Positions 1,790 through 56,703 of a stretch of 64,000 nucleotides of DNA are shown piece after piece. Position 1 is the first letter of the stretch. Each line of letters opens with the position of its first letter. The notes under the pieces are model-generated. The model did not search any database. It saw nothing but the letters and a program-made list of their open reading frames with translations, and was not told the origin of the DNA. The DNA is from Candidatus Dojkabacteria bacterium (GTDB taxonomy: Bacteria > Patescibacteriota > Dojkabacteria > SC72): NCBI GenBank assembly GCA_012842045.1, contig DUTP01000006.1, positions 10,979 through 74,978 of the forward strand, written 5' to 3'. The position numbers and the translations under genes are program-made.

Positions 1790-2245
1790 TTGTGTTATCC
1801 TTTTATTATGGAAAGGAGTAGGAAAGTAAAGATTTTAATGAGTGTATTTTTTATGTTTTTTCTCTTAGGTTTTGCAATTGTTTATTTATATCTAAATAGG
1901 AGTACAGAGGAGGTGTTGGGTGTGAAGGAGGATGTTAGAGAAGAGGTTATTGAGATAAATGGAGTGCCTAAGATTGTTTCTTTACCTCCTATGTTTGCTG
2001 TTGCAGGAGAACTTTATGAGTACTTTCCTAAGGTAATGGATAGTGATACGGATATCAACAGTCTGACATTGGAACTTGTATCTGCTCCAGAGTGGCTTAG
2101 TTTAGGGTTAAATAATGTTGTGAGTGGATATGTCCCAGTAGATGCTGTAGGTTATACCGTGAATTTTGTACTAAGAGTTTCTGATGGGTATAATTCATCT
2201 GATCAGGATAATTATATTTTGATAGTTGATGCAAATGAAATTTAA
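1790..2245 (+). CDS. Small membrane-anchored protein with a putative Ig-like (He_PIG/cadherin-like) domain
   Basis: N-terminal TM (VFFMFFLLGFAIVYLYL). The segment APEWLSLGLNNVVSGYVPVDAVGYTVNFVLRVSDGYNSSDQDNYILIV resembles the 'putative Ig' surface-domain consensus. The start may instead be the internal Met at about 1808. Confidence 0.45.
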   Translation: MCYPFIMERSRKVKILMSVFFMFFLLGFAIVYLYLNRSTEEVLGVKEDVREEVIEINGVPKIVSLPPMFAVAGELYEYFPKVMDSDTDINSLTLELVSAPEWLSLGLNNVVSGYVPVDAVGYTVNFVLRVSDGYNSSDQDNYILIVDANEI

Positions 2246-2642
2246 AATTTTTGGAATGTTTTTAGGTATTGCTTTAGTTATTGTTTCTATTTCAACCTTT
2301 TTATTTTTTAAGAGTAATGTTAGAAGTTATGATTCTCTTTTTGCAAAACAAGAGGGTTGTACGCCATATAATTTGTTTGTAGAAAAGGGAGATGATGATT
2401 TTTCCGTGAGAATTAGGTGGATGACGAAAGAGAAATGTGTAGGGTTTGTTCAATACGGTTTAGATAGAGATGATTTAAATAGAATAGGATTGGATGTGGA
2501 AAACATTACAAAAGCTATCGAACATGAGGTTGTGCTCAAGAAACTTTTAGCTAAAGAAAGATATTTCTTTATTATCAATTCTGATAACAAAGGTTATGCT
2601 CGAGAGGGTGCTCCATTAGAGTTTCTTTTAGAGGATCTTTAA
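2226..2642 (+). CDS. Small membrane-anchored protein with a purple-acid-phosphatase-N / FN3-like domain
   Basis: N-terminal TM. FSVRIRWMTKEKCVGFVQYG...HEVVLKKLLAKERYFFIINS matches the (R)W-T..-V-YG...H-V-L-L-P-T-Y-Y pattern of the Pur_ac_phosph_N/FN3 fold. It is paralogous to the two domains in the 43900-45915 protein. Confidence 0.45.
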   Translation: MMQMKFKIFGMFLGIALVIVSISTFLFFKSNVRSYDSLFAKQEGCTPYNLFVEKGDDDFSVRIRWMTKEKCVGFVQYGLDRDDLNRIGLDVENITKAIEHEVVLKKLLAKERYFFIINSDNKGYAREGAPLEFLLEDL

Positions 2643-14006: not shown

Positions 14007-14801
14007 TTAAATTTTTCGCTCAGCTGTTACAATTAGTCTTTTAGTTCCAATACCGAGAGGCCAGCAAGTCATTAGAGTTATAGTCTCCTTGTTTCTAGAA
14101 TGCTTTAGTACGGAAAAATCAGTAGCTTCTACAATCTTTTTACTTCTAACTATGTACTTAAGATTAGAATCATCCCTCTTTATTACAATCTCCTGTCCTA
14201 TATCTATCCCATCCAATCTCGAAAATATCGTTTCTGGGTAATCCTTGTGCCGACTAAAAAAAGCTTCTACTGCACTATGTCCATAGATAAAGGAATTGCC
14301 ACCATCTCCAGGTACAGGTGTTCCTTTGAAATGGGCTACACCACTCTTAAGGTATTTGTTGTAAACTTCTTCATTGGAACTCTCTACATTTGGTGATATT
14401 TTGATGTTTTTAATACCAATACTTTCTATGGTAATATACATGTTTTTGTTATACTGCTCATCAACCTTTATAGGGACTTGTTTGTTGGTTTTAGCATTGT
14501 ATACAGTGGCAGCGCCAAGGACACCAAGTTGTTCAGATAGATTTGCAAAGTAGCTTCTGCCTGGGTCATAGTATGCGAACTCGTTCTCAACATATTTCTT
14601 GTATGCTTCTGGTACGGGCTCAGCTTTGATCTCTACTCGTTTCTGTGCAACTACACCATCAAGATATGAATGTAGAAGAGGAATCACTTGGCTTGCAATT
14701 ACAGCCAGACCTGAGAAAGAGAGTATCAATGATACTGCGAGTCTTGTATTTTTAACTTTTTTGACACTTTCCGTATCAATATTCCATCTATTATTATCCA
14801 T
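14007..14801 (-). CDS. Sortase-family transpeptidase
   Basis: N-terminal TM. Catalytic His in NSFIYGHSA, Cys in ITLMTCWP (TLxTC) and Arg in KRLIVTAE match the sortase His-Cys-Arg triad spacing. Confidence 0.75.
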   Translation of the reverse strand: MDNNRWNIDTESVKKVKNTRLAVSLILSFSGLAVIASQVIPLLHSYLDGVVAQKRVEIKAEPVPEAYKKYVENEFAYYDPGRSYFANLSEQLGVLGAATVYNAKTNKQVPIKVDEQYNKNMYITIESIGIKNIKISPNVESSNEEVYNKYLKSGVAHFKGTPVPGDGGNSFIYGHSAVEAFFSRHKDYPETIFSRLDGIDIGQEIVIKRDDSNLKYIVRSKKIVEATDFSVLKHSRNKETITLMTCWPLGIGTKRLIVTAERKI

Positions 14802-18968: not shown

Positions 18969-20393
18969 ATGCAACTTCAGTATCTTAAATTAGGTGACCA
19001 AGAAGTTTTTAATGGTCAATTTCTTTTAGCTGTATATAGAATTAGAGGAAAGGAAGGTATTCCCTTAGATGATATTGCAACAGAAGTCGCTGCAGAATCT
19101 TCAACTGGTTCGAATGTAAGAATTAAAGTAGCAACTCCATATTCTGAGAGTATGAATGCTAGGGTATATAGAATAGATGAAGCAAAAAATTTAGTTTGGA
19201 TAGCTTACCCTTGGAGAATTTTCGATAGAGGAGGTAATGTTCAGAATATAATTACTTTTCTTGCTGGTAATGTCTTTGGTATGTCTTCTTTAGAAGAGTG
19301 TAAGCTTCTAGATGTGTATTTCCCACCACAAATGTTAGTTCACTATGAAGGACCAAGTTATACAATCAAAGAGATGAAAGAATATCTTAATATTGATAAT
19401 AGGCCAGTATTAGGAACTATTATAAAACCAAAGATAGGTTTAACATCATCAGAATATGCAGAACTTTGTTATGACTTCTGGAGTGGTGGTGGTGATTTTG
19501 TCAAAAATGATGAACCTCAAGCAGATCAGGACTTCGCACCATTTGATTTTATGGTTAGAGATGTTAGATATGCTATGGATAGAGTTGAAAAGGAAACAGG
19601 TAAGACAAAAGTTCACTCCTTTAATATCTCTTCTGCGGATTATGACACTATGATAGAGAGGGCTGAACTTATAAGGTCTACAATGAAACCAGGGAGTTAT
19701 GCTTTCCTAATCGATGGTATAACTGCAGGTTGGATGGCTGTACAAACAATTAGGAGAAGGTATCCTGATGTATTCTTACACTTCCATAGAGCAGGTCATG
19801 GAGCTTTTACTAGAGAAGAAACACCTTTTGGCTTTACAGTCCCTGTGCTTACTAAATTTGCTAGGCTAGCTGGTGCTTCTGGTATCCATACTGGTACGGC
19901 TGCTGTCGGTAAAATGGCCGGTTCACCTAAAGAAGATATTATGGCTGCAAATCATGCTTTAAGACTTTTTTCTAAAGGAGACTTCTTTAATCAAATATGG
20001 GCAGAGATACCAGAAAAGGATGCTGATTTAGTAAAAGCAATAGAGATGGAAGAAAAAGGAGAAGACTATGAAGATCTTGGTTTGTGGAGAATTACCAAAA
20101 AGACTTGTCCAATAATCTCAGGAGGTCTTAATCCCACTCTAATTGGTGAATTTTTAGACATAATTGGAACTCGAGACTTCATTACAACAATGGGTGGAGG
20201 TGTGCATTCTCATCCAATGGGTACTAAATCAGGAGCAACAGCCGTATTACAAGCATACGAAGCATGGGAGAAGAAAATTCCTCTTGAAGAGTATGCAAAA
20301 GAGAAAGAAGAGTTAAGGGTAGCAATTGATTTCTTTGGGAAAAAGAAAGTGCATGCTCAAAACGAATCTGATGATGACAAGGATATTCACTAG
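18969..20393 (+). CDS. rbcL: Ribulose-1,5-bisphosphate carboxylase large subunit, form II/III (archaeal/CPR-type)
   Basis: Active-site motifs are present: IIKPKIGL (KPK), GGGDFVKNDE (carbamylated Lys), LHFHRAGHGAF, MGGGVHSHP. 474 aa, no small-subunit gene adjacent. Confidence 0.85.
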   Translation: MQLQYLKLGDQEVFNGQFLLAVYRIRGKEGIPLDDIATEVAAESSTGSNVRIKVATPYSESMNARVYRIDEAKNLVWIAYPWRIFDRGGNVQNIITFLAGNVFGMSSLEECKLLDVYFPPQMLVHYEGPSYTIKEMKEYLNIDNRPVLGTIIKPKIGLTSSEYAELCYDFWSGGGDFVKNDEPQADQDFAPFDFMVRDVRYAMDRVEKETGKTKVHSFNISSADYDTMIERAELIRSTMKPGSYAFLIDGITAGWMAVQTIRRRYPDVFLHFHRAGHGAFTREETPFGFTVPVLTKFARLAGASGIHTGTAAVGKMAGSPKEDIMAANHALRLFSKGDFFNQIWAEIPEKDADLVKAIEMEEKGEDYEDLGLWRITKKTCPIISGGLNPTLIGEFLDIIGTRDFITTMGGGVHSHPMGTKSGATAVLQAYEAWEKKIPLEEYAKEKEELRVAIDFFGKKKVHAQNESDDDKDIH

Positions 20394-43553: not shown

Positions 43554-43835
43554 ATGGAAACAATACCACCACTGTTTTGGATGCTAATAGTTACTCTTCT
43601 AACAGGGTTACTGTCTTTCATTCTCTATCAAATAGGGATGTTCATAAAAGAGAGCCGAAATACGTTGAAAAATGTAGATAGTATGGTAAGTGATGCTAAT
43701 TCTATAGTGTCCACAGTAAAGGGGACAGTTGAGGAGGTCAATGATGCGATAATAAAGCCAATAAGAGGCATTGGTGCTGGTATGTCTGCAATTAGTGGTT
43801 TTCTTTCTGGTTTGAGGGGAGATAGGGAAGAATAG
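43554..43835 (+). CDS. Small membrane-anchored protein (DUF948-like: TM plus helical region)
   Basis: 93 aa. N-terminal TM (LFWMLIVTLLTGLLSFILY), then a helical, Gly/Ala-rich C-terminus. Confidence 0.4.
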   Translation: METIPPLFWMLIVTLLTGLLSFILYQIGMFIKESRNTLKNVDSMVSDANSIVSTVKGTVEEVNDAIIKPIRGIGAGMSAISGFLSGLRGDREE

Positions 43836-43899
43836 AGAATATTCTTTTTTGTGAATAGAGAGATTGTAATATCACCTATTTCTAGGTATCATAGTCTTA

Positions 43900-45915
43900 A
43901 TGAAAGTAGCTTATTTACCTCAGGTAAAAAGAAAGAAGAATATTATCCTAATTATACTTGCGTTAGCACTTCCTCTTTTAGTGTTTGCTGTATATCAGGT
44001 TGTAGAGTGGAGGTCCAGAGCTTCTGGGAATCAGGCGCCAAAGAACGTAGTCATTAGTAGTATTACTCGGAGTCAGTTCGTTATATCATGGACGACAGAT
44101 GGTAAGGCTAACGGTTCTGTAGTTTTACTTGACGATGGTGAGAGAGGTAAAGTGTATGTCGACCAAAGAGGAAGTTCTAAAAGATACTATACTCATCGTG
44201 TAGAACTTTCAAATCTATCTCCAAATACAGTGTACAAGTTTTTAATAAAGTCTGAGAATAAGGAATATGCATCTAGTGAAGGTAAAGAATTAGTTTTTAA
44301 AACTCCAGCTCATACACCTATTCCGACTCCAAAACTTGCGTATGGGAAAATAGACACTACATCAAAAAATGATGTTCTAGTATATATACTTTTGAGTGAT
44401 AAAAGCTCATATCCTGTGTCTACAGTATTATCTAGTACCAATGAATGGACTGTAGATCTCTTTCCTCTTCTAAAGATATTAGGTATGGAGAGAATTGAAG
44501 TTGGAGATGATACAAAATTAACGGTACTTGCTACTGATGGAAGAGGTAGAGGTGGTGTTTTGGAAGGTAGCTTTTCAACACTTTTTCATAGTACTGGAGC
44601 ATTGAAAGAAACATATGTTTTAGGATTAGATGAAGGAAAGGATATATACCCATATATTCCAGCGGAAGCAAAATTGGCAATAGGCTATCCTCCTGCAGAT
44701 GGTACATGTTGGTATTTTGATAGAGGTGTTTGTAAGGAAACAACTAATTGTTCTGTTCCGAAGAGATATTTAACAAAGGAATTGTGTGAGAGTGCTAATC
44801 TAGATGATCCTTATGACCCAGATCCTAGAGATCCTGACCCTTACGATCCGGACCCCAGAGATCCAAATGATCCTTACGATCCAGATTCTAGAGATCCTAA
44901 TGACCCAGATAATCCCGACTATCCTCCTGACTATGAATTTACAAATAGGCAGTATAGGATAATATACAGTCTTAGGTGGACTGATTTAGTACCCACATCA
45001 CAGTCAGAGGGAGGTGTTAGTACTGGAGCAAAGAGTGTAAGGGTGGTGGATATAAGTGACACTGGCTTTACAGTGCTGTGGAGAACAAGAGAGAAAGAAG
45101 AGGGGTATTTGAAATATGGAACTTCTCTTGGAGGATTAAATAATGTTGCATCAGACAGGAGGGATGGTGAACTTGTAAGGGGAGAGCACTATTTGCACAT
45201 AGTTGAAGTGTCTAAGCTTCAACCTGAAACAAAATATTATTTTAACGTTGTATCAGGGAAAGAAACATACACAAATGACGGTGCTGGTTTTACTGCGACA
45301 ACGTTTAAAACGATAGACAAGGCAGGTAATTTCTTCAGTTTAATAGGGGAACTAACTGGTATGCCAGAACATAAAGAAGTGATATTAATCTCTCATATAA
45401 AGGATGGTGATAACAAAGGTACTAAAGGAACAAGTACATCTGTTTCCTCTCTTGTGAATGAGGATGGAAGCTGGGGGATAACAATCTCAAATATGAGGAC
45501 TGAGGATGGAAGTGACTACTTTAAACATACGGTAGGTGATGATTTAATAATCGAACCATATACAACTTTTAGTTCAGCACAAGAAAAGATAAGTATGGAC
45601 GGAATAGATTTGAAAGATATTGTAATAGGCTTAGAAGAAGGTGATTCTCCAAAATCAATAAAGAAAGTATTAGCACCAAGATTGCAAAACTATGGAATAA
45701 CAGGTTCTGCTCAACCTCTTGCTCCTACATCTGGGTCTCCAGAGTCGAGTGGGAATTCTGACACATACTCTGGTGAAACTCCAAACACAGGAGTTTTAGA
45801 TTCTTTCTGGGGTGTTTTGCTTATATCAGTCTCTCTTTTAGGTGGTGGTGTGGTATTATATTTTTCTTTAAGGAAAAAAGATAAAAAGAGTGCTAAAATG
45901 AAAAGCAGTCTTTAA
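43900..45915 (+). CDS. Large surface protein: N-terminal TM anchor, two PAP-N/FN3-like domains, Asp-Pro repeat linker, C-terminal sorting-signal-like tail
   Basis: 671 aa. Domains FVISWTTDGKANGSVVLL...HRVELSNLSPNTVYKFLI and FTVLWRTREKEEGYLKYG...HIVEVSKLQPETKYYFNV. Asp-Pro repeat DPYDPDPRDPDPYDPDPRDPNDPYDPDSRDPNDPDNPDYPPDY. C-terminus ...SGETPNTGVLDSFWGVLLISVSLLGGGVVLYFSLRKKDKKSAKMKSSL. Confidence 0.55.
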   Translation: MKVAYLPQVKRKKNIILIILALALPLLVFAVYQVVEWRSRASGNQAPKNVVISSITRSQFVISWTTDGKANGSVVLLDDGERGKVYVDQRGSSKRYYTHRVELSNLSPNTVYKFLIKSENKEYASSEGKELVFKTPAHTPIPTPKLAYGKIDTTSKNDVLVYILLSDKSSYPVSTVLSSTNEWTVDLFPLLKILGMERIEVGDDTKLTVLATDGRGRGGVLEGSFSTLFHSTGALKETYVLGLDEGKDIYPYIPAEAKLAIGYPPADGTCWYFDRGVCKETTNCSVPKRYLTKELCESANLDDPYDPDPRDPDPYDPDPRDPNDPYDPDSRDPNDPDNPDYPPDYEFTNRQYRIIYSLRWTDLVPTSQSEGGVSTGAKSVRVVDISDTGFTVLWRTREKEEGYLKYGTSLGGLNNVASDRRDGELVRGEHYLHIVEVSKLQPETKYYFNVVSGKETYTNDGAGFTATTFKTIDKAGNFFSLIGELTGMPEHKEVILISHIKDGDNKGTKGTSTSVSSLVNEDGSWGITISNMRTEDGSDYFKHTVGDDLIIEPYTTFSSAQEKISMDGIDLKDIVIGLEEGDSPKSIKKVLAPRLQNYGITGSAQPLAPTSGSPESSGNSDTYSGETPNTGVLDSFWGVLLISVSLLGGGVVLYFSLRKKDKKSAKMKSSL

Positions 45916-45940
45916 TTAATTGAATATAATTAGAGGATAA

Positions 45941-47398
45941 ATGAATAAAGGAAGAAAAAATAAAAAAGCATTGATACTTCTAATAGTCTTGTGCCTTTTT
46001 TCATTTTTTGTTGTAAAAGCTACAAAAAAGATGGAAAGAGATTTAGAGCCGAAAAAGGAAATAACAAGTGAAGTTTTGGAGTGTTCTACATGTGGGGAAT
46101 CTAGTAGTTTAGAAGAAAACTTGGAAGAGGATTTAACAGAAAATATTTTGTTAGTAGATAAAGCGGATACAATTGATATTACAGATATGGTATTGGGTAC
46201 GGATTCGGGTGGGGGGAGAATCTCTTGTAGGGGCTTAGAAAAAAACCCCTCTCTTAAATCCTTAAGGTATGTGTGTTCTACTGAGAATGCAGGTAATGTG
46301 TCGTTTATTCTTCCTCCTGAAATTAGAGATTCTGGGGGAGCAGCTGTACTGACTAGGGGGTTGACAGAATTTAAGATTACGAAAATAACCTATCCTCTCG
46401 CTTTTGGTCTTGGTCAATATAGGTATATAGATAGTAACAAACAGATTAGGAAAAAATCTCCTGATTATAGGTCCAATGGTCAGCAAATAGATACAGCATA
46501 TGTGTCGAAAACATTGGCACCTAATGAAGTAGATGACTTTGAAGAAAATATTTCTGGTACTGTTAAAAAAGCTTTTGAAGTAGAGGCTAAAGTTGATCTT
46601 AAATCAACAGCTAATACAAAGGATGAAAGTGGAAATTCTAGAATGTATATTGTTGAGAATATCGAAGGAGATCCTGAGTGTATGTTTAAAGATCAAAAAT
46701 GCTCAACTATACCTGAATTTGCAGTTTCAGATTACAACATCGGGAAATCGAATCGTATAGCTTACTATGCTGGCTATGACAGTGGGCAAATTCCTGGTGG
46801 TGATGAGATACTAAATGAAATTGATATGGATGATGTTCCTGTAGAGAAGGAGTGTTTAGTTGAAGGAGAAGACTACAAGGCAATAAGTAAAGGTAAAAAA
46901 ATTCTTTGCAACGATACTGCTTTATCTGTTCTTTGGGCTACTTTTAAGGAGTCTTTTTCTTCTAGTGAGATTGAAGCTTGTCGTCCAATGGGTTATTGTG
47001 AAAGAGCAAAAAAGGTTGCGATAAAGATGACTCCTATATTTGGCGAACCAGATGAATGTACAAAAGACTTATGTGCAAATGCATTTCTCTCTCAAACATA
47101 TAGGCAAACGCTTTCTCCTGCAGAATCTATAGAGACGAGTACAGTAAATCCTGATAAACGAAAAAGTATAATGTTTTTTGTTGCTACAGATTGCTCAGTT
47201 TTGGTGGATTTAAAGACTGTAGATGTATATTGTCTTTGGGATGCATCTCCAACACTTTTAAACTATAATCTACAAGCAAAGGACAAGTCTCCTAATCAGG
47301 AAGACTTTCCTTGGAACTTTAATCGTTATTGGGCTAGTGTGTCAGGAGCAATAAACTGGTCTGATGAGAATGGTTATAAAATAGGAAACGAACATTAA
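45941..47398 (+). CDS. Cys-rich membrane-anchored extracellular protein, unknown function
   Basis: 485 aa, N-terminal TM (ALILLIVLCLFSFFVV), about 20 Cys spread over the ectodomain. Confidence 0.5.
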   Translation: MNKGRKNKKALILLIVLCLFSFFVVKATKKMERDLEPKKEITSEVLECSTCGESSSLEENLEEDLTENILLVDKADTIDITDMVLGTDSGGGRISCRGLEKNPSLKSLRYVCSTENAGNVSFILPPEIRDSGGAAVLTRGLTEFKITKITYPLAFGLGQYRYIDSNKQIRKKSPDYRSNGQQIDTAYVSKTLAPNEVDDFEENISGTVKKAFEVEAKVDLKSTANTKDESGNSRMYIVENIEGDPECMFKDQKCSTIPEFAVSDYNIGKSNRIAYYAGYDSGQIPGGDEILNEIDMDDVPVEKECLVEGEDYKAISKGKKILCNDTALSVLWATFKESFSSSEIEACRPMGYCERAKKVAIKMTPIFGEPDECTKDLCANAFLSQTYRQTLSPAESIETSTVNPDKRKSIMFFVATDCSVLVDLKTVDVYCLWDASPTLLNYNLQAKDKSPNQEDFPWNFNRYWASVSGAINWSDENGYKIGNEH

Positions 47399-47414
47399 AT
47401 TAATATCTTTTAAA

Positions 47415-48746
47415 ATGAAAAAAACATTAAACATTCTTCTCTTTATAATTCTTCTCTTTGCTTTTTCTCCATTTGCAATATTTGCTCAAGAAGAAGAGGA
47501 AGCTGAAGAAAGTGAAAAGATAGATAAAAATATAGTATATATGGAATCTGTAGAACTCTCAGACACTCTTAGTGAGAACGAAACAAAAGCAGAAAATGTA
47601 GAGAGAGGTTCCATGAAAACTATAGCAGGGATGTCTCTGAGTCTCTTTATGTCGGCTTGTCCAGATTGTTTCGAAGGAGAACTACCAGAAGAATTAGAAG
47701 GGAGAGGTTTAACAAATATAGTAGATGGGCAAATAGCTAAACTGTTTAATAATCAACCGCGAGTAGATCTAGTTGCTCACCTAGCAGATGAATGGGTGCC
47801 AGGGTACAAGCATGTAGGTGATAGTGTATATGCAGGTGGTTTTGGTGACTTAGAAGAAACAAAGATAGCAGGTCTTTGGACTAAAACTAGAAATATAGCG
47901 TATCTTGGTTATGTGGTAATTATGATTATTGTAGGCTTTATGATAATGTTCAGAAACAAGATAGGAGGACAGGTAATGGTTACAGTTAGTAACTCCATTC
48001 CTAGGATTGTTGTTTCCCTCATTCTGGTTACATTTAGTTTTGGGATAATCGGGTTGATTATAGACTTTGGTGGTGTAGTAAGATCCATTATTGATAGTAT
48101 TTACTTTGGTGGAGAGTCAGGTATAGATGTTCATAATCCTTTCTTTCTAGTAGGAGGGTTTCTTGGGAGAAATGAAGGTACAGCAATAACCAGTGCTTTG
48201 GGAATTGCTGGTATAGTTATTATGATTGTTAAAACCTTCAACCCTCTTGGTCTCTTGTTATCACTTATGGGGCTAGTCGTTCTATGTGTAGTACTTTGGG
48301 GTGCTATAAAACTTTGGATAACACTCCTAAAATCTTACTTTGGAATGCTAATTAATATTGTAACAGCTCCACTTGCGATTCTTTTTGGTTCTTTACCAGG
48401 CAATGAGGCTTCTTTGTTTAATGTATTTAAATCTGCTCTTAGAAATGTTCTTGCATTTCCACTTGCTTATGCCATTGTTAATCTTCCATATGTATTAGAA
48501 GATCAAGGTGTCGTATTGTCTTTTCCTGAAACTTTAGTCCATGCATCGACAGATGATACAACTTTCCTACCTAATCTCTTAATTGAGATAGCCAAAGTAA
48601 TGGCAATATATGCAGCAGCTGCAGCTCCAGAAATATTAAAAGCAATTATCCCTGCTACAGGATCTAAAGCAGGAGAGGAGATTGGCAAAGCATTGAAGGA
48701 GAATGTGTCGAAAACACCGTTAATAGGGGGACTATTTAAGTCTTAG
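47415..48746 (+). CDS. Polytopic membrane protein with a cleavable signal peptide, VirB6/TrbL-like topology. Tentative.
   Basis: Signal peptide MKKTLNILLFIILLFAFSPFAIFAQ. Acidic periplasmic segment of about 150 aa. 5-6 Gly/small-residue-rich TM helices. Short C-terminal tail. Confidence 0.45.
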   Translation: MKKTLNILLFIILLFAFSPFAIFAQEEEEAEESEKIDKNIVYMESVELSDTLSENETKAENVERGSMKTIAGMSLSLFMSACPDCFEGELPEELEGRGLTNIVDGQIAKLFNNQPRVDLVAHLADEWVPGYKHVGDSVYAGGFGDLEETKIAGLWTKTRNIAYLGYVVIMIIVGFMIMFRNKIGGQVMVTVSNSIPRIVVSLILVTFSFGIIGLIIDFGGVVRSIIDSIYFGGESGIDVHNPFFLVGGFLGRNEGTAITSALGIAGIVIMIVKTFNPLGLLLSLMGLVVLCVVLWGAIKLWITLLKSYFGMLINIVTAPLAILFGSLPGNEASLFNVFKSALRNVLAFPLAYAIVNLPYVLEDQGVVLSFPETLVHASTDDTTFLPNLLIEIAKVMAIYAAAAAPEILKAIIPATGSKAGEEIGKALKENVSKTPLIGGLFKS

Positions 48747-48777
48747 TTTAGGTTATAAAAACATTTAGGGAAACAAT

Positions 48778-51411
48778 ATGTCAAAGGATCAGTATCAGGG
48801 GGCATTAGATTCTATCTTCAATTTCATCTTTACAGAATCTAAGAAGCCTGCTAACAAGGTGAAACCGGTAAAAGTTACAGGTGTTGATGGTAGCAATGAA
48901 TTTATGGATGCAGTTGCAGCCGTGTTGGAGAACCCCTTACTTTTTGTTAATGATACTACCAAAAATGCATTTGAAGGTTTAATTAATCCAGACATAGCAA
49001 CTGTGGACCTAGGTCCTAATGAGAAAGTCAAGCTATCTCTGAAAGATGTTGGTAGTGTGTTAAAAGGAGATACCTCTTTTATAGATAAACAGCTTAAGAA
49101 ACTAGAAGCTAATCGTAAAAAAGGAACCCTAGAATGGGCAGGAGAAGAACTCTCGAATATAGTGGCAACAGCATGGGCTAAAGAACATGGTCTTGATATT
49201 ACAACCCGAGATGCCCTCATGAATATGTCTAAATCGGCAGATGCAGGCGGTCTTAGAGACTTAAATACCTCAGCTCTCAGTAAAGCCTTAGCAGAAGAAT
49301 TACTGGCCCGAGGAGTAAATTTCGATAATATGCAAGAAAGTGCTTTCAAGGCAGCCTTTGGAGAGAAAGAAGGAGGTCTCATCTACAGCTCTTTACAGAA
49401 GGTAGTAAAAGAATACAAAGAAGCACAAACCACTGGAAGAAGTACGAAGGAGATTTTAGATTCAATAGATAATAATCATTACACAATCCTCTATCCAGTC
49501 TTTCAGAGTAAATACATGGAAGAAAAGGCGGAGGAGGAAGAAGAGAAAGGAGATGAAGAGAAAGCCAAGTACTATCAACAAGCACAAAGAGCGATAGATA
49601 TATATACACAGGGCTCTCTTAGAGATAGATACCTCCAAAGAATGCAATTTAAACTTCAACAAGAAGAAAGAGAGATACGTGATTTATTAGCATCCGGCAA
49701 ACCAGTAAGCAGAGAGAGAATTAATAATATGAGAAGAGAAGCTAGTCGAATGCGGGCAGAGATCCGTATCTTAAAAGGTCATGATCTGGCTAGGAGATTT
49801 GGTAAATGGGAAGGACATTACAAATCAGTTAAAGGTTTGTATGAACAAACAACAGGAGGTCAACTCCTCCCTGCAATTCTAACAGGAGACTTCTTTGACC
49901 CTAGAAAGAATACAGTATGGGGTCTTCAACCTACTCAAGAGATGGATTTCAAGTATGGTAATTTTCTTGTAGATGATAAAGATGGTTTTATTAAGATTAA
50001 AATAGCTAAAATATATGATGAAGTAGAGGTAGATGAATCAGGCAAGGTTATAGAAGGTAAAGGTGTTAGAGGTCCTCTAGGAAGAAAGGTTAAAACCCTA
50101 AGAGTCCCCTCCAGAAGCCTAAGCAAAGCATACAATCAAATGATGACTGACATTTACTATCTAACTCCAGCAGTTCTTGTTAGAACTTTAGGTACAGGTG
50201 AAAGATTTGCATACAAGGCACATAGGCAAGTAGAAAACTTCTTGGATAAATATAAACATCTGTTTCCTAATCTAGACTTAGAAAAACTCTTCGGTCCTGA
50301 TGGTGAAAACTACCTTGTTACATTCTCCAACCTAGAAGATTTTGCTAAATTAGAAGAGTTCTTTAGGAAAAATAAAAGACTTAGAACACTGGCATATAAC
50401 TTTGGGGTTCTTGATAGGACTAAGAGAAAAATAACAAAATTTTTACGGGAAAAAATAGATCATTGGTTTGGAGCATTAAGAGGTTCTCTAGGTAATTGGT
50501 TACTTAAGAGAATACAGGGTCCAGGGGCTAAAAACCTGATAGAGCAATGGATGAAGAAAGGGGCATTTAAAGTACTGATAGAAGGTATAAAGATGAGTAT
50601 TAAGACAGCTCTTGGTATTACAACTTCTACATGGGGACTTATTGTTAGCTTTGTAATAGATAGGTTTGCTGATATAGCACGTAGCATAGGTGAGAAGGCA
50701 CTAAGTCCCATATTAAAAATTATTTTTACAGTGATAATCTTTACATTGGTGGGAATAATAGGTCTTGGAACCTTGTCTCTCACCTCTTTATATATGAATA
50801 CGAGAAATATGTATTCTCATGTAGCACCAAAGGATGTGATTGTAGGAGATGCTGATTTAGATATAGCATCTTCCTCTCCTTTGCCTTGGGATTGGGATGG
50901 TGACCTTGATGATATACCTGTTCCTGAAGATTGTAATCAAATATTTGAGTTTGCCGCTGGTATCTTAGGTATTTTTGATGTTCCTTTACAATGTACATCA
51001 TATTCGGATAGTACTTGGTGTATAGCTACAAGGAAAGCTATTCAGTGTGATTGTAGTAAGGTGTGTTCTTCGAATCCTCAAGCTGTTTTTTGGCTTGCTA
51101 CACACGAATATATTCATATCTTACAATATAGAGGACCTATAGGTTATGGGCCAAATCCCAAAATATCAGAATGGGGTGCTGACTATTTATCTAAGAATGG
51201 AGGTGCCTATATGTGTCAGTCTGAGTGGGGTTATCTGAGAGCTACAGAAATAGGGGAAGCTATTATGAATGCATATCCTGGTATTTGTACAAGAGCAGAA
51301 CTCAGATTTATAGCACTCCGACAAAAAGCATCTGGACCTTGTTATCGGTTACTTGATAGAGGGATCTCTTATTGTAAACTTGGTGATTGGATTGTTTATG
51401 GAAGTGGTTAA
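48778..51411 (+). CDS. Giant 877-aa protein: soluble N-terminal region with coiled-coil, TM segment(s), C-terminal Cys-rich domain with an HExxH (zincin-like) motif
   Basis: No signal peptide. Coiled-coil and charged region (EEKAEEEEEKGDEEKAKYYQQAQRAID...RMRAEIRILKG). Strong TM (ILKIIFTVIIFTLVGIIGLGTLSL). C-terminal approximately 200 aa carry about 14 Cys and the motif FWLATHEYIHILQY. The 5' portion looks locally GC-richer, and a 195-aa antisense ORF runs at 48795-49382. Confidence 0.55.
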   Translation: MSKDQYQGALDSIFNFIFTESKKPANKVKPVKVTGVDGSNEFMDAVAAVLENPLLFVNDTTKNAFEGLINPDIATVDLGPNEKVKLSLKDVGSVLKGDTSFIDKQLKKLEANRKKGTLEWAGEELSNIVATAWAKEHGLDITTRDALMNMSKSADAGGLRDLNTSALSKALAEELLARGVNFDNMQESAFKAAFGEKEGGLIYSSLQKVVKEYKEAQTTGRSTKEILDSIDNNHYTILYPVFQSKYMEEKAEEEEEKGDEEKAKYYQQAQRAIDIYTQGSLRDRYLQRMQFKLQQEEREIRDLLASGKPVSRERINNMRREASRMRAEIRILKGHDLARRFGKWEGHYKSVKGLYEQTTGGQLLPAILTGDFFDPRKNTVWGLQPTQEMDFKYGNFLVDDKDGFIKIKIAKIYDEVEVDESGKVIEGKGVRGPLGRKVKTLRVPSRSLSKAYNQMMTDIYYLTPAVLVRTLGTGERFAYKAHRQVENFLDKYKHLFPNLDLEKLFGPDGENYLVTFSNLEDFAKLEEFFRKNKRLRTLAYNFGVLDRTKRKITKFLREKIDHWFGALRGSLGNWLLKRIQGPGAKNLIEQWMKKGAFKVLIEGIKMSIKTALGITTSTWGLIVSFVIDRFADIARSIGEKALSPILKIIFTVIIFTLVGIIGLGTLSLTSLYMNTRNMYSHVAPKDVIVGDADLDIASSSPLPWDWDGDLDDIPVPEDCNQIFEFAAGILGIFDVPLQCTSYSDSTWCIATRKAIQCDCSKVCSSNPQAVFWLATHEYIHILQYRGPIGYGPNPKISEWGADYLSKNGGAYMCQSEWGYLRATEIGEAIMNAYPGICTRAELRFIALRQKASGPCYRLLDRGISYCKLGDWIVYGSG

Positions 51412-52405
51412 AAATTTTTTTAAAAAATATAAGAAGTATATTCTAATAGGTTTAGCTGTTGGTTTAACTGTTGGACTGATTGCTTTTTGGGAAGTTAAAT
51501 CTCGAAGTGAAATCGGAGCCGACCCCAAAAATAAAGAGCTTCTCTCTCCTTTTTGGGACTTATTAGATCATCCAACCTTGTCACTACCTTCTGATATTGT
51601 AATATATACGGAAGAAGAGATTCCTGTGTATGACATTCTGCCCTACAAAGGGAATGTTTTAAAGATAATTCAGAAGTTTGATGAAAATATAGAGATAACA
51701 TCTGACACTTCCAACCTTATAGAAACAGAAAACATCTTAGCCTCATATACTGAAAATGTGGGAGTTTTAGAGGTATATTTAAAAACCCATGCTTTCACAT
51801 TTACAGTGAAAAATAACCAGGATGTTTCTAATCTAATTAAAGGTATCTTTGGGTATGAAACAAATCAAGAAAGTATTGTCATGAAAAGGATAGAAGAAAA
51901 TATTATTTTTCAAGGGAGATACTTAGTAGAAAGCTCTTCGAAGGAAGAGTTTGGTTCTATGCAGATAGACTCTTACGCCTACAGAATTGAAACAGAAAAA
52001 GATGGTAGTGTTAAACGAATAGTTATATTGCTATACAATAACAACAGTATTAATACGTATTCAGTTTATCCTCCTGTAAGTATTAGGGAAGGACTTAAAA
52101 AAGGAAATGCCTACTATACAAAACCCCTATATCAGGATTTTGATAAAGAGGATTTTTCGGGGTTGGAATTTCTTAAATATTTTTCCAGAACAAAATCGGT
52201 TTCTGTTAGGAAGACTAGTAAAGTATATATTTTACCAGACTACAATTATTCCTATCTGTACCCAACATATGTTATAGAAGGGGATGCTAAATTAGAAGAC
52301 TTTCTTGGTAATTCTCATATTGGGGAATCGTTAATATATGTATTGGCAATAGATTCGCAATATCTCAAAAAGAGTGTAGAAGAACTCGAGCCTATCTCGA
52401 ATTAA
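51353..52405 (+). CDS. Membrane-anchored protein of unknown function
   Basis: 350 aa. N-terminal TM (ILIGLAVGLTVGLIAFW). It overlaps the upstream gene, so the likely start is the internal MEVVKN Met at about 51398. Confidence 0.45.
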   Translation: MIEGSLIVNLVIGLFMEVVKNFFKKYKKYILIGLAVGLTVGLIAFWEVKSRSEIGADPKNKELLSPFWDLLDHPTLSLPSDIVIYTEEEIPVYDILPYKGNVLKIIQKFDENIEITSDTSNLIETENILASYTENVGVLEVYLKTHAFTFTVKNNQDVSNLIKGIFGYETNQESIVMKRIEENIIFQGRYLVESSSKEEFGSMQIDSYAYRIETEKDGSVKRIVILLYNNNSINTYSVYPPVSIREGLKKGNAYYTKPLYQDFDKEDFSGLEFLKYFSRTKSVSVRKTSKVYILPDYNYSYLYPTYVIEGDAKLEDFLGNSHIGESLIYVLAIDSQYLKKSVEELEPISN

Positions 52406-52536
52406 ACAAAATTTCGGAAAAAGACAGAGAATATACAGTACCAGCATTGGTTTTTCTGAATGCTATAGATCCGAAATACATTGAAACTGAAACAGAAAAG
52501 TAGAAAAATAAAAACATACAGTGTACAATCAAGTAT

Positions 52537-53712
52537 ATGAAATTATTTAAAAGAACAATAATTACTCTCTTACTATTTCTGCTCTCCACAACAGGTGCTT
52601 TCGCTCTTACGTCTTTTTCTGCTACAACTCTTCAATTTGACACGAGCCTAACTGAAGGAGCTGATCAGGTATATACAACTCCGGAGAAAATATATATATC
52701 ACAAATTACAACAAAGTCAGAACAGCTATCTCAAGACCCTGAACTTTGGGTTAAATCCCTCTACTATTACTATATCACTAGACTCTACATTCCTGACTTA
52801 CCATACACATATCTGCTTGATGAGAATGGAATAATATATCAGGGAAAAACAGGGGGACTAGGGGCTAATTTACAGGAAAATGATCTTGATAATGCTGTTT
52901 TAGTGGGGTACTTATCGAACACTCCTACTCTGACGGTAAGAGCAGAAACCTCTTTGATAGAGATGGTTGGTGAGATAGCTCATGCGTGGGGTATCTCAAC
53001 AGTTAAACCTGTAAAAGTAAATATTATAAAGGAAGAAAATAAAATGTCTGGGATAAAGATAACGGATGCTCCTTTTGAATTTACAACAGCTATTAACAAC
53101 CTTTTCAAGGATTGGAAGGGATACACAGAAGAAAACCTTAACTACAAAGCTACGATAGAGGAGGTCATTGCGCCTATGGAGTCTGAAATAGGTAGTAGAG
53201 TGACAGTAAAAGTGAAAATTACAAATGAGAATGACTTTCCATGGTTTACCGATAGAGATCCAATATATGTTTCTACAAAAGATGGAAAGGAAAGTTCCCT
53301 TGCTATAAATCAACTCTGGCCTAGTTTTAGTAAACCAGTAGAGATATCTGATAGAAGTATAAAGCCAAAAGAGACATTTGAAATTGGCTTCGAGATTGAA
53401 GCAAAAGTTCTTACAGGAGAAGTCTTCCAGACCTTTGTTTTACAAAAAGTAGATGGGGAGCCATTTGAAGGCTCAGAGTTTGAGGTGAAGTTCGATGTTG
53501 TGAAAGGTGATAAGACTCTTGTACAGGTAGTATCCCCAGAGTTTGGGTTTGTAAATGTTCGTAAATGTAGATGGGCAAGTTGTGAGATTTTAGATAGCCC
53601 AAAGGAAGGCACCATATTCATTCTCTTGGGTGAAGAAGCAGGTTGGTACAAGATACAATATGCACCTGGAGTAGAAGGGTGGGCAATGCTTAGATATTTT
53701 AAGAAAATATAA
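52537..53712 (+). CDS. Secreted protein with a degenerate PGRP/amidase_2-like domain and a C-terminal SH3b domain
   Basis: Signal peptide MKLFKRTIITLLLFLLSTTGAFA. YTYLLDENGIIYQGKTGGLGANLQENDLDNAVLVGYLSN...PTLTVRAETSLIEMVGEIAHAWGI resembles the amidase_2 core, but the Zn-ligand His residues are not evident. The C-terminus GFVNVRKCRWASCEILDSPKEGTIFILLGEEAGWYKIQ is SH3b-like. Confidence 0.35.
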   Translation: MKLFKRTIITLLLFLLSTTGAFALTSFSATTLQFDTSLTEGADQVYTTPEKIYISQITTKSEQLSQDPELWVKSLYYYYITRLYIPDLPYTYLLDENGIIYQGKTGGLGANLQENDLDNAVLVGYLSNTPTLTVRAETSLIEMVGEIAHAWGISTVKPVKVNIIKEENKMSGIKITDAPFEFTTAINNLFKDWKGYTEENLNYKATIEEVIAPMESEIGSRVTVKVKITNENDFPWFTDRDPIYVSTKDGKESSLAINQLWPSFSKPVEISDRSIKPKETFEIGFEIEAKVLTGEVFQTFVLQKVDGEPFEGSEFEVKFDVVKGDKTLVQVVSPEFGFVNVRKCRWASCEILDSPKEGTIFILLGEEAGWYKIQYAPGVEGWAMLRYFKKI

Positions 53713-53725
53713 ATATTCAGTAGAA

Positions 53726-55732
53726 ATGGTTACCAATGATATTCTTAAGGGGTTAAATCCCCAACAAAAGAAAGCTGTTATGTGTACAGAAGGACCACTT
53801 CTAGTTTTTGCTGGTGCAGGGTCTGGGAAGACCAGAGTGATTACAAACAGAATTGCATATTTAGTTAGTGATAAAAACGTATCACCAACCAATATTCTTG
53901 CTGTTACGTTTACTAAAAAAGCAGCAGGAGAAATGCAGGAAAGAGTTGAAGAAATACTGAAAGATATTGGAATGCTTAAGAAAGGGGTTCCTACAATTGG
54001 GACATTCCATTCTATTGGAGCAATGATATTAAGACAAAATGCTAAAGCAGTTGGTTTAGATAATAACTTCTCTATTTATGACTCAGATGATTCTGATAAT
54101 ATGATAAAAGATTTATTAATAGAAAGAGATATTGATATAAAACAGATAAAACCTAAATCAGTATCATACTTAATTAGTAATGCTAAAAATCAGATGATTT
54201 CCCCTGAAAATTTCTCTAACTACTTCTACGGTTTTATTGAAGATACAGTTGCTGAAATCTATCCTCTCTATCAAAAACAACTTCAAGCTCAAAATGCTGT
54301 AGACTTTGGAGATTTACTCTATCTAACAGTTAAACTTTTACAAGAAAATGAAGATATTAAGGAAAAGTATCAGGATAAATACAAATATCTATTAATAGAT
54401 GAATACCAAGACACAAATGAAGTGCAATACAAATTTGCAAAACTACTCTCTGAAAAACATCAAAACATATGTGTAGTAGGCGATGATGACCAAGGAATAT
54501 ATGCATGGAGGGGTGCAAATATCAAAAATATACAATCATTTGAAGATGATTTTGAAAAGGTAAATGTTGTTAAACTTGAACAAAACTACAGATCTACTAA
54601 GAATGTAATACAAGCTGCAATAAGTGTAATACAACAAAATAATAGTAGGGTGGACAAAGTTCTTTGGACAGACAATAGTGAAGGAGAAAAAATCACAATA
54701 TATCAAGCTATGGATCAAGAAGATGAAGCTGAATATGTTGTAAATAATGCAAAACTTCTCCAACAAAGGGGTGTTCCTTTAAAGAATATGGCTGTACTAT
54801 ACAGAACAAACTATCAATCAAGAGCAATAGAAGAAGCTCTACTTAAATTAGGACTCCCTTACAAATTAGTAGGAGGATTTAGATTCTATGAAAGGAAAGA
54901 AATTAAAGATATCATTAGTTATCTCAGATTCTGCTTTAACCAGAAAGATGAATTAAGTCTAGATAGAATATTGAATACTCCACCAAGAAAGATAGGTCCA
55001 AAAGCTAAGGCAGAGCTATATTCATTCGCGAAAGAAGCAGGTTTAACTTTAGGCGAGTTTATCATAGGTGCATATCTTGTTGATAATAAAGAATTCATAG
55101 AGAAAGTAAACATAGAGGAAGGAAAAACAATAGAGATTGGGGAGATTAAAGAGAAGTGGAGTAAGTATCAATCTGTTATTACTCTGTTTGGTAACCTTTT
55201 CTTCTTTGCGAAAAGTACAAATCTTTTACAATTGATAGATACCATAGTAGAAAGAACTGGATATATACAATGGTTTGATGATGGTACAGAAGAGGCTCTA
55301 ATGAAGAAAGAGAATATAATGGAGTTAAAAAGTGTGGCATCGTCATATTCAAGTAAATATGGAGAGAAAAGTTTAGAGGTATTTCTAAATGAAATTAATC
55401 TGATAGAACAAGAACAGGATAAAAACCAAGATGGAACTGGTAATTATATTAATCTAATGACACTACACTCATCAAAAGGTCTTGAATTTGACTATGTATT
55501 TATGGTTGGAGTTGAAGAAGGTTTATTACCACACTCAAGGTCATTTTTAGAAGAAGATGATTTGGAAGAAGAGAGAAGGTTGTGTTATGTAGGGATTACA
55601 AGAGCAAAACAGAAGTTATTTATCTCATTTGCAGAAAAAAGGATAACTAGAGAAGGATTCTCGTCGCAAATACCGTCAAGATTCTTAGGGGAAATACCAC
55701 AAGATATTTGTGAATATTATAGTTACAAATAA
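53726..55732 (+). CDS. pcrA: ATP-dependent DNA helicase, UvrD/PcrA family
   Basis: LNPQQKKAVMCTEGPLLVFAGAGSGKTRVITNRIAYL (motifs Q and I), DEYQDTN (II), the remaining helicase motifs, and C-terminal GITRAK. Confidence 0.9.
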   Translation: MVTNDILKGLNPQQKKAVMCTEGPLLVFAGAGSGKTRVITNRIAYLVSDKNVSPTNILAVTFTKKAAGEMQERVEEILKDIGMLKKGVPTIGTFHSIGAMILRQNAKAVGLDNNFSIYDSDDSDNMIKDLLIERDIDIKQIKPKSVSYLISNAKNQMISPENFSNYFYGFIEDTVAEIYPLYQKQLQAQNAVDFGDLLYLTVKLLQENEDIKEKYQDKYKYLLIDEYQDTNEVQYKFAKLLSEKHQNICVVGDDDQGIYAWRGANIKNIQSFEDDFEKVNVVKLEQNYRSTKNVIQAAISVIQQNNSRVDKVLWTDNSEGEKITIYQAMDQEDEAEYVVNNAKLLQQRGVPLKNMAVLYRTNYQSRAIEEALLKLGLPYKLVGGFRFYERKEIKDIISYLRFCFNQKDELSLDRILNTPPRKIGPKAKAELYSFAKEAGLTLGEFIIGAYLVDNKEFIEKVNIEEGKTIEIGEIKEKWSKYQSVITLFGNLFFFAKSTNLLQLIDTIVERTGYIQWFDDGTEEALMKKENIMELKSVASSYSSKYGEKSLEVFLNEINLIEQEQDKNQDGTGNYINLMTLHSSKGLEFDYVFMVGVEEGLLPHSRSFLEEDDLEEERRLCYVGITRAKQKLFISFAEKRITREGFSSQIPSRFLGEIPQDICEYYSYK

Positions 55733-56703
55733 CCACATACATATCTGTGGCTAAGTTCTTTTTTGTAAGTATTGACATACTGTTTGTAAACACCTGGCCA
55801 CATCTTTGCAGGATCAGCGCATCCTCTTATTTTTTCTAATGTTCTCTTGATTTGTGCGTGTCCTTCAAAAATATTATCTGTGGGATATTGTTTGTACCAT
55901 AAACATGGATTCCACTGGAAAAGTCCTTTGTGGAAGCCCTTGTTTCTTTCTGCATTACAACCAGATTCTTTTTCCATTGTAAATTTCAGCCATTCCTTTT
56001 CCTCTTCTGTTGCATTAATCTTGTCAACTTCTGATTTCCAATATGGACAATTGAATCCAATCTGAGGAACAGAGTCTGGAGGATGTATACCACCAGAGAG
56101 AGAAATAATCTCTTTTACAGGTTGTTTAATAATCTCTTCACTTACAACTTTTTCAGAAATATATTCTCCATCGAGAAAATATTTTTCAATTGTTTGCACT
56201 TTTCTTCCTGTCTCGCCTTTTTGTGCAATTCTCTTTTCAGTCATACTTGCACATAGGGATTCTCCTTCTGTAACAGTCTCAAATGGGACAGTCACAAAAA
56301 CCTGAGAAATCTCTGTTACATATGTCTGAATTGTAATATAGCTCTCTTTGTATAATCTATCTATCGGAGAATTAGATAGAATTCTATTCTTACTCCCAAG
56401 AGGATATCCGAGCTCTAGAAGAGTTTCTGTAGTACTGATGCCTCTTGTTAAATATGTGACAATATCCGAATTGTAAGAAACAGTCATAACTTTGATCCTA
56501 CCATCAGAGGTATCTTGAATACCAAGAACATCCATAAGAGCTTCTCTGTTTTCTCTCTCTACTTCCGTAAATACATCTCTGTATATATCTCCGAAATGTT
56601 TGGTACTTACAGTATTTGCAAACCAAAACATGATAAGAAACAGCAATAAATAGAATACCTTTTTTCTAGACATAGTAATCAATTCTATCATACAAAAAAA
56701 CAT
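55723..56703 (-). CDS. Secreted G5-domain protein with a C-terminal Rpf-like (lysozyme-fold) transglycosylase domain; DUF348-G5-Rpf architecture
   Basis: N-terminal TM or signal peptide. DUF348-like DGRIKVMTVSYNSDIVTYL. G5-like ...VPFETVTEGESL...KGETGRKVQTIEKYFLDGEYISEKVV. The C-terminus EKESGCNAERNKGFHKGLFQWNPCLW resembles the Rpf motif (CESGGNW...GGLQF..TW) with a catalytic Glu. Confidence 0.45.
   Translation of the reverse strand: MFFCMIELITMSRKKVFYLLLFLIMFWFANTVSTKHFGDIYRDVFTEVERENREALMDVLGIQDTSDGRIKVMTVSYNSDIVTYLTRGISTTETLLELGYPLGSKNRILSNSPIDRLYKESYITIQTYVTEISQVFVTVPFETVTEGESLCASMTEKRIAQKGETGRKVQTIEKYFLDGEYISEKVVSEEIIKQPVKEIISLSGGIHPPDSVPQIGFNCPYWKSEVDKINATEEEKEWLKFTMEKESGCNAERNKGFHKGLFQWNPCLWYKQYPTDNIFEGHAQIKRTLEKIRGCADPAKMWPGVYKQYVNTYKKELSHRYVCGYL

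Follow-up and report, generated by a model that had tools for sequence, protein, structure and literature searches.

A conserved envelope gene block of Candidatus Dojkabacteria with a VirB6-like membrane protein and an exchangeable wall-hydrolase cassette

What does a run of seven envelope genes do for a Candidatus Dojkabacteria bacterium (Patescibacteria, or candidate phyla radiation, CPR) whose genome measures ~750 kb? The genes, which we call g1 to g7, lie at 43554-53712 of the window, the 64-kb stretch of that genome that we analysed, and a reading made from the letters of the DNA had proposed them as an undescribed cell-surface or secretion module reminiscent of monoderm conjugation and type IV secretion system (T4SS) modules. 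Its T4SS-like intuition was right at the level of fold and genomic context, and we find that the block is conserved, chromosomal and most likely encodes envelope parts of the T4SS machinery known from CPR bacteria. The class of system is already known, a chromosomal and relaxase-less Patescibacteria T4SS having been described in 2023 (Wang et al., PMC10633639) and surveyed in 2025 (Quinonero-Coronel et al., PMC12102498), so that the phrase 'undescribed secretion module' does not stand. What appears to be undescribed in these two papers is the Dojkabacteria arrangement together with a dimorphic cassette made of a hydrolase and its partner: the hydrolase domain of g5 and the gene after it form an exchangeable unit with two states, which is the most unusual feature of the locus and one that the sequence-only reading had missed. 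The build of g5, in which a lineage-specific cytoplasmic helical domain is followed by one transmembrane (TM) helix and an extracellular wall-hydrolase head, also appears to be new.

The g5 head and g6 are exchanged as one unit

The 877-aa product of g5 consists of a cytoplasmic helical domain of ~640 aa without a signal peptide, one TM helix (residues ~640-673), a short juxtamembrane stretch that ends in an HVAP...DADLDIAS motif, and the C-terminal head. Its homologs are alike over ~700 N-terminal residues and then diverge, and across 59 Dojkabacteria loci the heads fall into two types, M23 in 40 and HExxH zincin-type in 19, the window included. (HVAP was considered as a universal switch motif and rejected, since no clade but that of the window conserves it.) M23-type heads keep D74, H134 and H176/H178 at >=90% conservation; two of the loci (L024 and L041; L numbers denote loci throughout) have heads with M23 plus CHAP, and one protein, P0134, scores for CHAP only. 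The window head has no M23 (PF01551) catalytic motifs and carries instead LATHEYIHIL, the stretch already singled out in the sequence-only reading. Within the 19 HExxH heads H105, E106, H109, Q112, E127, G129 and A130 are invariant, as are the HExxHxxQ and E-W-G-A-D motifs, and the whole has a gluzincin-like look. The active-site helix of the M9 enzyme ColH is weakly matched (E 0.12), four of the 19 weakly match eCIS_core/DUF4157 (E 0.043), and AlphaFold2 (AF2) left the window head unmodelled, with a predicted local distance difference test score (pLDDT) of ~23. Judging from its motifs, we regard the HExxH head as a putative extracellular cell-wall peptidase.

The exchange of this head with its neighbour is seen most directly between close relatives. 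DNA of the window and of L001 is 98.3-98.6% identical on both sides of 50871-52429 and shows no similarity over that interval, where L001 has an M23 head and a different g6; a second, independent near-isogenic pair (L050/L063) has identical cassette boundaries. The same coupling holds over 53 loci. Identity of g6 between head types is flat at ~16% regardless of how similar the g4 sequences are, identity of g6 within one head type climbs from 20% to 52%, and the nearest neighbour by g6 shares the head type in 52 of the 53. On a tree of g4 plus the N-terminal part of g5 (g5N) head type takes 14 parsimony changes, where shuffled labels take 14.6 +/- 1.4, and on the g6 tree it takes only 1. Head type is random on the first tree and congruent with the second.

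A trace of one such exchange persists in the window. In frame inside the spacer between g6 and g7, a relic translates to ...VPALVFLNAIDPKYIETETEK followed by a stop codon, the last 21 residues of an M23-type g6 allele, and it matches the C-terminus of the L001 g6 allele (IVPALVFLNAIDPKYIETKTEK, then the stop) with DNA ~98% identical. As a remnant of the displaced allele it explains the unusual length of this 131-nt gap, and it indicates that in the lineage of the window an HExxH cassette took the place of an M23 one. The g5 head and the whole of g6 are thus exchanged together between strains.

A pattern of this kind raises the question of whether the locus is a polymorphic toxin-immunity system serving contact-dependent antagonism, in which the g5 head would be a wall-degrading toxin, g6 its membrane-anchored immunity protein, and the N-terminal region of g5 with g4 the means of delivery. 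The CdiA-CT/CdiI, Rhs and LXG loci share with ours a conserved N-terminal region, a sharp switch after a conserved motif to a variable C-terminal domain, co-inheritance of that domain with the adjacent gene, and displaced-allele relics; the relic in the window resembles the orphan modules of contact-dependent inhibition (CDI) and Rhs loci. The strict tie of g6 class to head type and the joint replacement of domain and gene would fit as well, and so would the eCIS_core/DUF4157 signal, from a domain found in effector proteins. If toxins were being diversified, however, one would expect an open-ended repertoire, and the cassette has only two head classes in 59 loci. Unlike immunity proteins for unrelated toxins, which are normally unrelated themselves, the two g6 classes are mutually homologous and equal in size and topology; they are large bitopic ectoproteins, joined across both head classes in one family (59 matches in 56 loci) that is weakly related to a protein of a T4SS locus. 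There are no orphan toxin-immunity arrays, protein-family scans matched no named delivery domain (such as LXG, Rhs or CdiA), and the head remains tethered to a TM helix, with no processing site shown. We consider a toxin-immunity function improbable.

The VirB6-like protein and the T4SS context of its relatives

It is g4 that ties the block to T4SSs. A deposited hypothetical protein of Candidatus Dojkabacteria is 100% identical to its 443-aa product. Hydropathy and AF2 helices give the g4 product an N-terminal signal peptide, an ectodomain of ~130 aa (to about residue 150) and then a TM bundle; like VirB6/TrbL proteins it is polytopic, with at least five helices and an extracytoplasmic region. 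Only DotA and TrwI/VirB6 match its AlphaFold model above background, and Foldseek, independently, puts five TrwI chains first, the modelled fold being like those of TrwI of R388 (PDB 7o3v/8rt9) and DotA of Legionella (PDB 9ngy). The VirB6/TrbL likeness that had been proposed from topology therefore holds at the level of the predicted fold. Divergence from that family is extreme: sequence identity to TrwI and DotA is only 8-14%, no VirB5 or VirB4 was recognised adjacent to g4, and a profile of the g4 family matched no VirB6 sequence in the PDB. TrbL and TrbC are nonetheless the sole recurrent weak Pfam matches in the family, with TrbL matched by 4 of 67 diverse members (best E 5.4e-4, below threshold); one member has a weak match to TMP_3.

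Relatives of g4 in other CPR classes sit in T4SS loci. We examined seven non-Dojkabacteria loci (L006, L008, L009, L087, L089, L091 and L092), one of them from a 'Pacebacteria' genome (the 2025 survey places another Pacebacteria assembly in Microgenomatia, PMC12102498), and found VirB2-like T4SS pilin arrays upstream of the g4 relative in all seven. Downstream of it in L006 and L089 come, in this order, genes for a large TM protein whose C-terminal domain is M23, for a TM-anchored protein of ~340 aa, for PrgI (VirB3-like) and for a TraC-like protein, an arrangement that parallels g5-g6. In L089 the TM-anchored protein encoded immediately before PrgI is weakly matched by the g6 family (E 3e-4). 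Two further genes recur in these seven loci: the VirB6-like gene is always preceded by one for a secreted protein of 1075-1450 aa, and it is followed on the opposite strand by one for a cytoplasmic protein of 840-1290 aa without a Pfam match. Both are conserved components of the CPR T4SS neighbourhood.

Our favoured reading, which we hold to be reasonably probable, sees in the block the version that Dojkabacteria have of those parts of the chromosomal Patescibacteria T4SS that span the envelope. That apparatus resembles monoderm (MPF-FATA-like) conjugation machinery, and in Southlakia, the only case open to genetic work, it is essential for growth on the host (PMC10633639). Block and published system occur in the same phylum, are chromosomal and lack a relaxase, and both combine a VirB6-type subunit with M23/CHAP wall hydrolases. 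The gene cluster also has a cell-wall hydrolase for the VirB1 role, namely the g5 head, as the sequence-only reading had suspected. VirB1-type hydrolases of Gram-positive T4SSs such as PrgK of pCF10, TraG of pIP501, TcpG and CwlT (see also section 13 of PMC12102498) are, like g5, membrane-anchored with an extracellular domain, LytM/M23 or CHAP in their case, and are encoded beside VirB6-like and VirB8-like genes, a setting like that of g5. They differ in having a short N-terminal anchor, where g5 has its ~640-aa cytoplasmic domain ahead of the TM helix, and their heads are SLT, CHAP or M23, whereas that of g5 is an HExxH zincin in the window and alternates in type between strains. The Dojkabacteria module also departs from the Patescibacteria T4SSs of other classes: there, g4 relatives stand beside VirB2-like pilins, PrgI and TraC-like genes, and here the module lies apart from VirB4, VirB3 and pilins, its VirB6 is invisible to the Pfam profile, the N-domain of g5 is lineage-specific, the module occurs in two or three copies, and head and g6 form the two-state cassette that is not described for the published systems.

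How far does conservation support a functional unit? A scan of species-representative genomes gave at least 547 related loci, with Dojkabacteria supplying most of the best 80. The order g1-g2-g3-g4-g5-g6-g7-UvrD is kept in ~60 Dojkabacteria species, with the flanking RsmB/RsmE and UvrD genes conserved likewise, so the gene order that the sequence-only reading had wished to see in related genomes is there, housekeeping flanks included. More telling are paralogous modules, two or three copies of the core module being found in Dojkabacteria genomes other than that of the window. A second quartet of g3-like, g4-like, g5-like and g6-like genes lies between queA and tgt/rny in L058, L068, L071 and L086, and in a third module type (L004, L073, L080 and L083; in L004 it lies near dnaA/dnaN/yidC) the VirB6-like protein is longer and goes with a small Cys-rich protein and a headless protein that has the g5 N-domain. 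From this recurrence we take the functional core to be the VirB6-like protein plus the g5 N-domain, usually with g3 and g6, and independent evidence of linkage is confined to g3-g4-g5-g6, the genes of the paralogous quartet. Across all three module types (L004, L058, L071 and L086) the best conserved part of g5 is residues 1-40 (48778-48900 in the window), where an extreme N-terminus of the form …Y-x-x-(A/V)-(L/F)-x-(S/F)-(I/V)-F-(D/N)-F-I-F… precedes a Lys/Pro-rich stretch; from its conservation, this N-terminus could be an interaction or targeting motif.

The same conservation can be read in another way. The block might be an autonomous machine for wall remodelling or growth with no role in secretion, in which g4 and the cytoplasmic domain of g5 control the hydrolase much as in FtsEX-PcsB/EnvC, g6 is a regulator, g7 is a wall-binding factor, and g4 derives from VirB6 but has departed from T4SSs. 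A core, chromosomal block flanked by housekeeping genes in ~60 species is what one might expect of such a machine, and none of the two or three paralogous modules per genome lies beside an ATPase, pilin or PrgI gene. Moreover, g5 joins a coiled-coil cytoplasmic domain to M23/CHAP heads, the enzyme types of EnvC and PcsB, and the window has other wall enzymes nearby (LytR-CpsA-Psr, a sortase and a G5-domain protein). Yet the only fold relatives of g4 are T4SS VirB6 proteins, its family is embedded in T4SS loci in other CPR classes, no FtsE/FtsX-like ABC component is adjacent, and a change of enzyme class and partner between strains whose flanks are ~98.5% identical is not what one would expect of a housekeeping autolysin. 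On balance we think wall remodelling an unlikely explanation.

Mobile DNA is a far poorer fit. A VirB6-like protein with a hydrolase is typical of conjugative elements, and long helical proteins with M23/CHAP ends resemble phage tape-measure proteins, one weak TMP_3 match being known from the g4 family, so that the block might be what is left of a prophage or of an integrated conjugative element, in which a lysin domain sits on a tape-measure-like protein. But its position between RsmE and UvrD is fixed across ~60 species, the window ORFs (open reading frames) that were scanned include neither an integrase nor a relaxase, the GC content of the block equals that of its surroundings, and searches of 72,556 plasmids, of 50,697 phages and of IMG/VR contigs brought up no relatives of it. 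So constant a core setting, together with the lack of plasmid, phage or viral relatives, effectively refutes this origin.

Several results weigh against assigning the block to the Patescibacteria T4SS, and they have to be set beside those given above. The Foldseek scores for g4 are marginal (E 0.018-0.11, TM-scores 0.26-0.51), and g4 does not match Pfam TrbL (PF04610) at E<=1 or reach its gathering score. For g5, hhalign found no homology between its N-domain and the hydrolase carriers of other CPR T4SS loci, and a fold search with the N-domain was uninformative. A VirB8-like role for g6 would draw on analogy of position and topology, with the match of E 3e-4 in L089 as its one weak profile signal. 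Queries with a pilin hidden Markov model (HMM), PrgI and TraC-like proteins match nothing in the window, which also contains no VirB4/VirD4-like ORF; the sequence-only reading had likewise found no VirB4, VirD4 or pilin there. In ~75 Dojkabacteria loci, too, no VirB4, VirD4, PrgI/VirB3, TraC-like or VirB2-like pilin gene comes within 10 kb of the block, and the pilin HMM matches all 7 of the non-Dojkabacteria loci and none of those from Dojkabacteria. Because VirB4, VirB3 and pilin genes are absent from the window, we infer that the block is tied to a T4SS ATPase; that it would be coupled to a VirB4 from elsewhere in the genome has a basis at class level only, in Table S1 of PMC12102498, where two assemblies from Dojkabacteria are marked VirB4-positive. 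Finally, the conserved gene order largely reflects general Dojkabacteria synteny, and g1, g2 and g7, which lie outside the paralogous modules, are attached to the block by synteny alone.

Partner proteins and a possible mechanism

The partner of the head, g6, most likely starts at ATG 51398, giving 335 aa identical to the deposited P0280, and not at TTG 51353 as in the 350-aa version first proposed. It has an N-terminal TM helix and an ectodomain of ~300 aa. Profile searches gave no Pfam or PDB match and no sequence or profile similarity to VirB8-like proteins, and a homology search with g6 returned only g6 itself. The VirB8-like bitopic proteins of monoderm systems (TcpC, PrgL and TraM) are similar in size, have the same N-terminal TM helix and ectodomain, and are encoded, as g6 is, beside a hydrolase and a VirB6-like gene; TcpC has ~359 aa. 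By this analogy g6 is a candidate VirB8/TcpC-like scaffold or regulator.

Among the remaining products, g3 is Cys-rich as first described, 12 of its 15 Cys being conserved at >=90% across 54 orthologs. It has no Pfam or PDB match, and in L068 and L071 the gene before the g4 paralog is a g3 homolog as well; by analogy, its position would be that of VirB5 in diderm systems. For g2 the sequence-only reading was too pessimistic in naming no family with confidence. Its two domains match Pfam Pur_ac_phosph_N (E 8.6e-18) and fn3 (E 9.5e-12), the Asp-Pro repeat is present, and the C-terminus runs from TPNTG through a hydrophobic stretch to a basic RKKDKK tail, as the proposed sorting signal would have it. 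A tail of the form (T/I)PxT[GA] plus hydrophobic and basic stretches occurs in 19 of 78 matches to the g2 family and is seen among the closest relatives listed; NCBIfam LPXTG_anchor matches g2 at E 0.23, below its cut-off. We regard g2 as a candidate sortase-anchored adhesin, from its domains and tail, and the sortase encoded in the window at 14007-14801 likely processes the TPNTG tail. Beside g1/g2, many Dojkabacteria loci encode a further surface protein with PAP_N/FN3 domains, 970-1160 aa long (L002 3240-6629; L011 3602-6514; L064 2888-6364), that the window lacks at this place, so the adhesin part of the block varies in content.

The same pessimism applied to g7, for which the PGRP-like and SH3b assignments are borne out. 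A g7 profile matches PGRP-SD (E 6.2e-5), many other PGRPs in the PDB and an autolysin SH3b domain (E 4.5e-9), and of its 47 orthologs all match Pfam SH3_3, 19 match Amidase_2 (below threshold) and 18 match N_BRCA1_IG. In the PGRP part (residues 40-170) the 47-sequence alignment has no invariant or nearly invariant His or Cys that could serve as zinc ligands, which suggests a non-catalytic domain that probably binds peptidoglycan without cutting it. As for g1, it has one TM segment (residues 2-31) and lies upstream of g2 in 54 loci. The DUF948 likeness first seen in it recurs in 42 of 50 orthologs (best E 1.8e-6), all of them below the gathering score, and a g1-family profile found no meaningful match among PDB sequences. 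Its membership in the system is uncertain, since it is absent from the paralogous modules.

How might these parts work together? On the T4SS reading, g4 would be an extremely diverged VirB6-type membrane channel or stalk subunit of a T4SS-related conduit. From the cytoplasm g5 would dock onto it, with one helix spanning the membrane and the peptidoglycan-cutting head outside, where it would do the job of the VirB1-type hydrolases in Gram-positive T4SSs. A membrane-anchored ectoprotein, g6 would pair physically with the head as scaffold, gate or inhibitor. We infer both the physical interaction of g4, g5 and g6 and the target of the hydrolase. Extracellular contact and wall binding would fall to the Cys-rich g3, to g2 as an FN3 adhesin with a sortase-type tail, and to g7 with its non-catalytic PGRP and SH3b domains, and the ATPases would be encoded elsewhere in the genome. 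The most likely purpose would be to open peptidoglycan for passage of the conduit, the wall being the cell's own or, for an epibiont, that of its host. The two head forms, M23 endopeptidase and HExxH zincin, would be ancient, each with its own g6 class, and would be swapped between lineages by recombination; differences in wall chemistry or compatibility would then underlie the two cassette states.

Why would cells keep two states at all? A flip between M23 and zincin together with a partner gene, independent of phylogeny, is a pattern usually driven by interaction with another organism, and it suggests that an external partner, most plausibly the host wall, exerts the selection and that the wall-cutting step is a determinant of specificity. 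It is tempting to go further. The cassette might be an ancient balanced dimorphism that sets which host wall or partner is breached, a host-range or compatibility switch of an epibiont's T4SS-derived conduit, with the pair of VirB6-like protein and g5 N-domain, in two or three copies and never beside an ATPase, being a new self-contained VirB6-based envelope machine and not a dispersed piece of a canonical T4SS. We offer this larger idea as a speculation that is somewhat unlikely to be right. Should cassette state prove to follow the wall chemistry of hosts, the host range of uncultured epibionts could be predicted from sequence. The paralogous modules of VirB6 and g5, for their part, may diversify the apparatus.

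The g4 family has a wider bearing, as Patescibacteria make up a large share of bacterial diversity. The 2025 survey reported little VirB6 in Microgenomatia and none in Gracilibacteria, 'suggesting extreme sequence divergence' (PMC12102498). A profile of g4 orthologs matches 3898 clusters at 50% identity (E<=1e-3), and this family, VirB6-like by predicted fold and missed by Pfam TrbL, may account for the reported scarcity, for example in Microgenomatia, and may supply the VirB6 that is missing from annotation in Microgenomatia and Gracilibacteria.

Gene layout and neighbouring genes

Seven ORFs, all on the + strand, occupy the block (Table 1). The sequence-only reading had spoken of six in its title and listed seven; apart from that count, its coordinates, direction and membrane anchors were confirmed, and a hydrophobic N-terminal or internal segment is present in every product from g1 to g7. 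The genes are closely spaced as it had said, with gaps from g1 to g7 of 64, 25, 16 and 31 nt, an overlap of g5 and g6, and then the 131-nt spacer. Its notion of a discrete co-directional block fares less well: the run continues past g7 into the housekeeping gene for UvrD/PcrA helicase (53726-55732), so that direction alone is insufficient to delimit the block. A gene for a TPR protein and one for EF-G belong to the same downstream flank, and upstream, on the - strand, lie those for the rRNA methyltransferases RsmB and RsmE. GC content of the window is ~34%. Pfam and NCBIfam scans of all seven proteins gave nothing for g3, g4, g5 or g6, and a promoter and terminator scan of the block returned counts close to the shuffled expectation.

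Table 1. Positions in the window of the block genes, the parts of g5, the exchangeable cassette and the allele relic.
Feature	Coordinates	Strand
g1, small coiled-coil membrane protein, N-terminal anchor, weakly DUF948-like	43554..43835	+
g2, surface protein, two PAP_N/FN3 domains, Asp-Pro linker, C-terminal TPNTG tail	43900..45915	+
g3, secreted or anchored Cys-rich ectoprotein, directly upstream of g4	45941..47398	+
g4, highly divergent polytopic membrane protein, VirB6-like by predicted fold, 443 aa	47415..48746	+
g5, conserved part: cytoplasmic helical domain, one TM helix, juxtamembrane stretch	48778..50870	+
g5, variable C-terminal domain of HExxH (gluzincin-like) type, Cys-rich, predicted extracellular	50871..51411	+
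Exchangeable cassette: g5 C-terminal domain and entire g6, ~1.56 kb	50871..52429	+
g6, bitopic membrane protein, 335 aa	51398..52405	+
Relic, 3' end of M23-type g6 allele, in g6-g7 spacer	52430..52503	+
g7, secreted, probably peptidoglycan-binding protein: PGRP/Amidase_2-like, Ig-like, C-terminal SH3b	52537..53712	+

Other envelope genes are scattered through the window. Besides the sortase, which is on the - strand, they encode a LytR-CpsA-Psr ligase, a small He_PIG Ig-domain protein and a small PAP_N-domain protein related to the domains of g2; the coordinates given for these non-sortase genes are 5455-6891 (-) and 1790-2642 (+). Just downstream of UvrD, at 55723-56703 (-), lies the gene for a G5-domain protein (Pfam E 2.5e-10) with Cys in its C-terminal region; it occupies the same position in L002 and L011, and by eye it resembles Rpf-like wall-lytic proteins. 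Further away, between IF-2 and GroEL, a 474-aa ORF at 18969-20393 (+) has an N-terminus that looks RuBisCO-like by eye, and RuBisCO-like proteins are known in Dojkabacteria.

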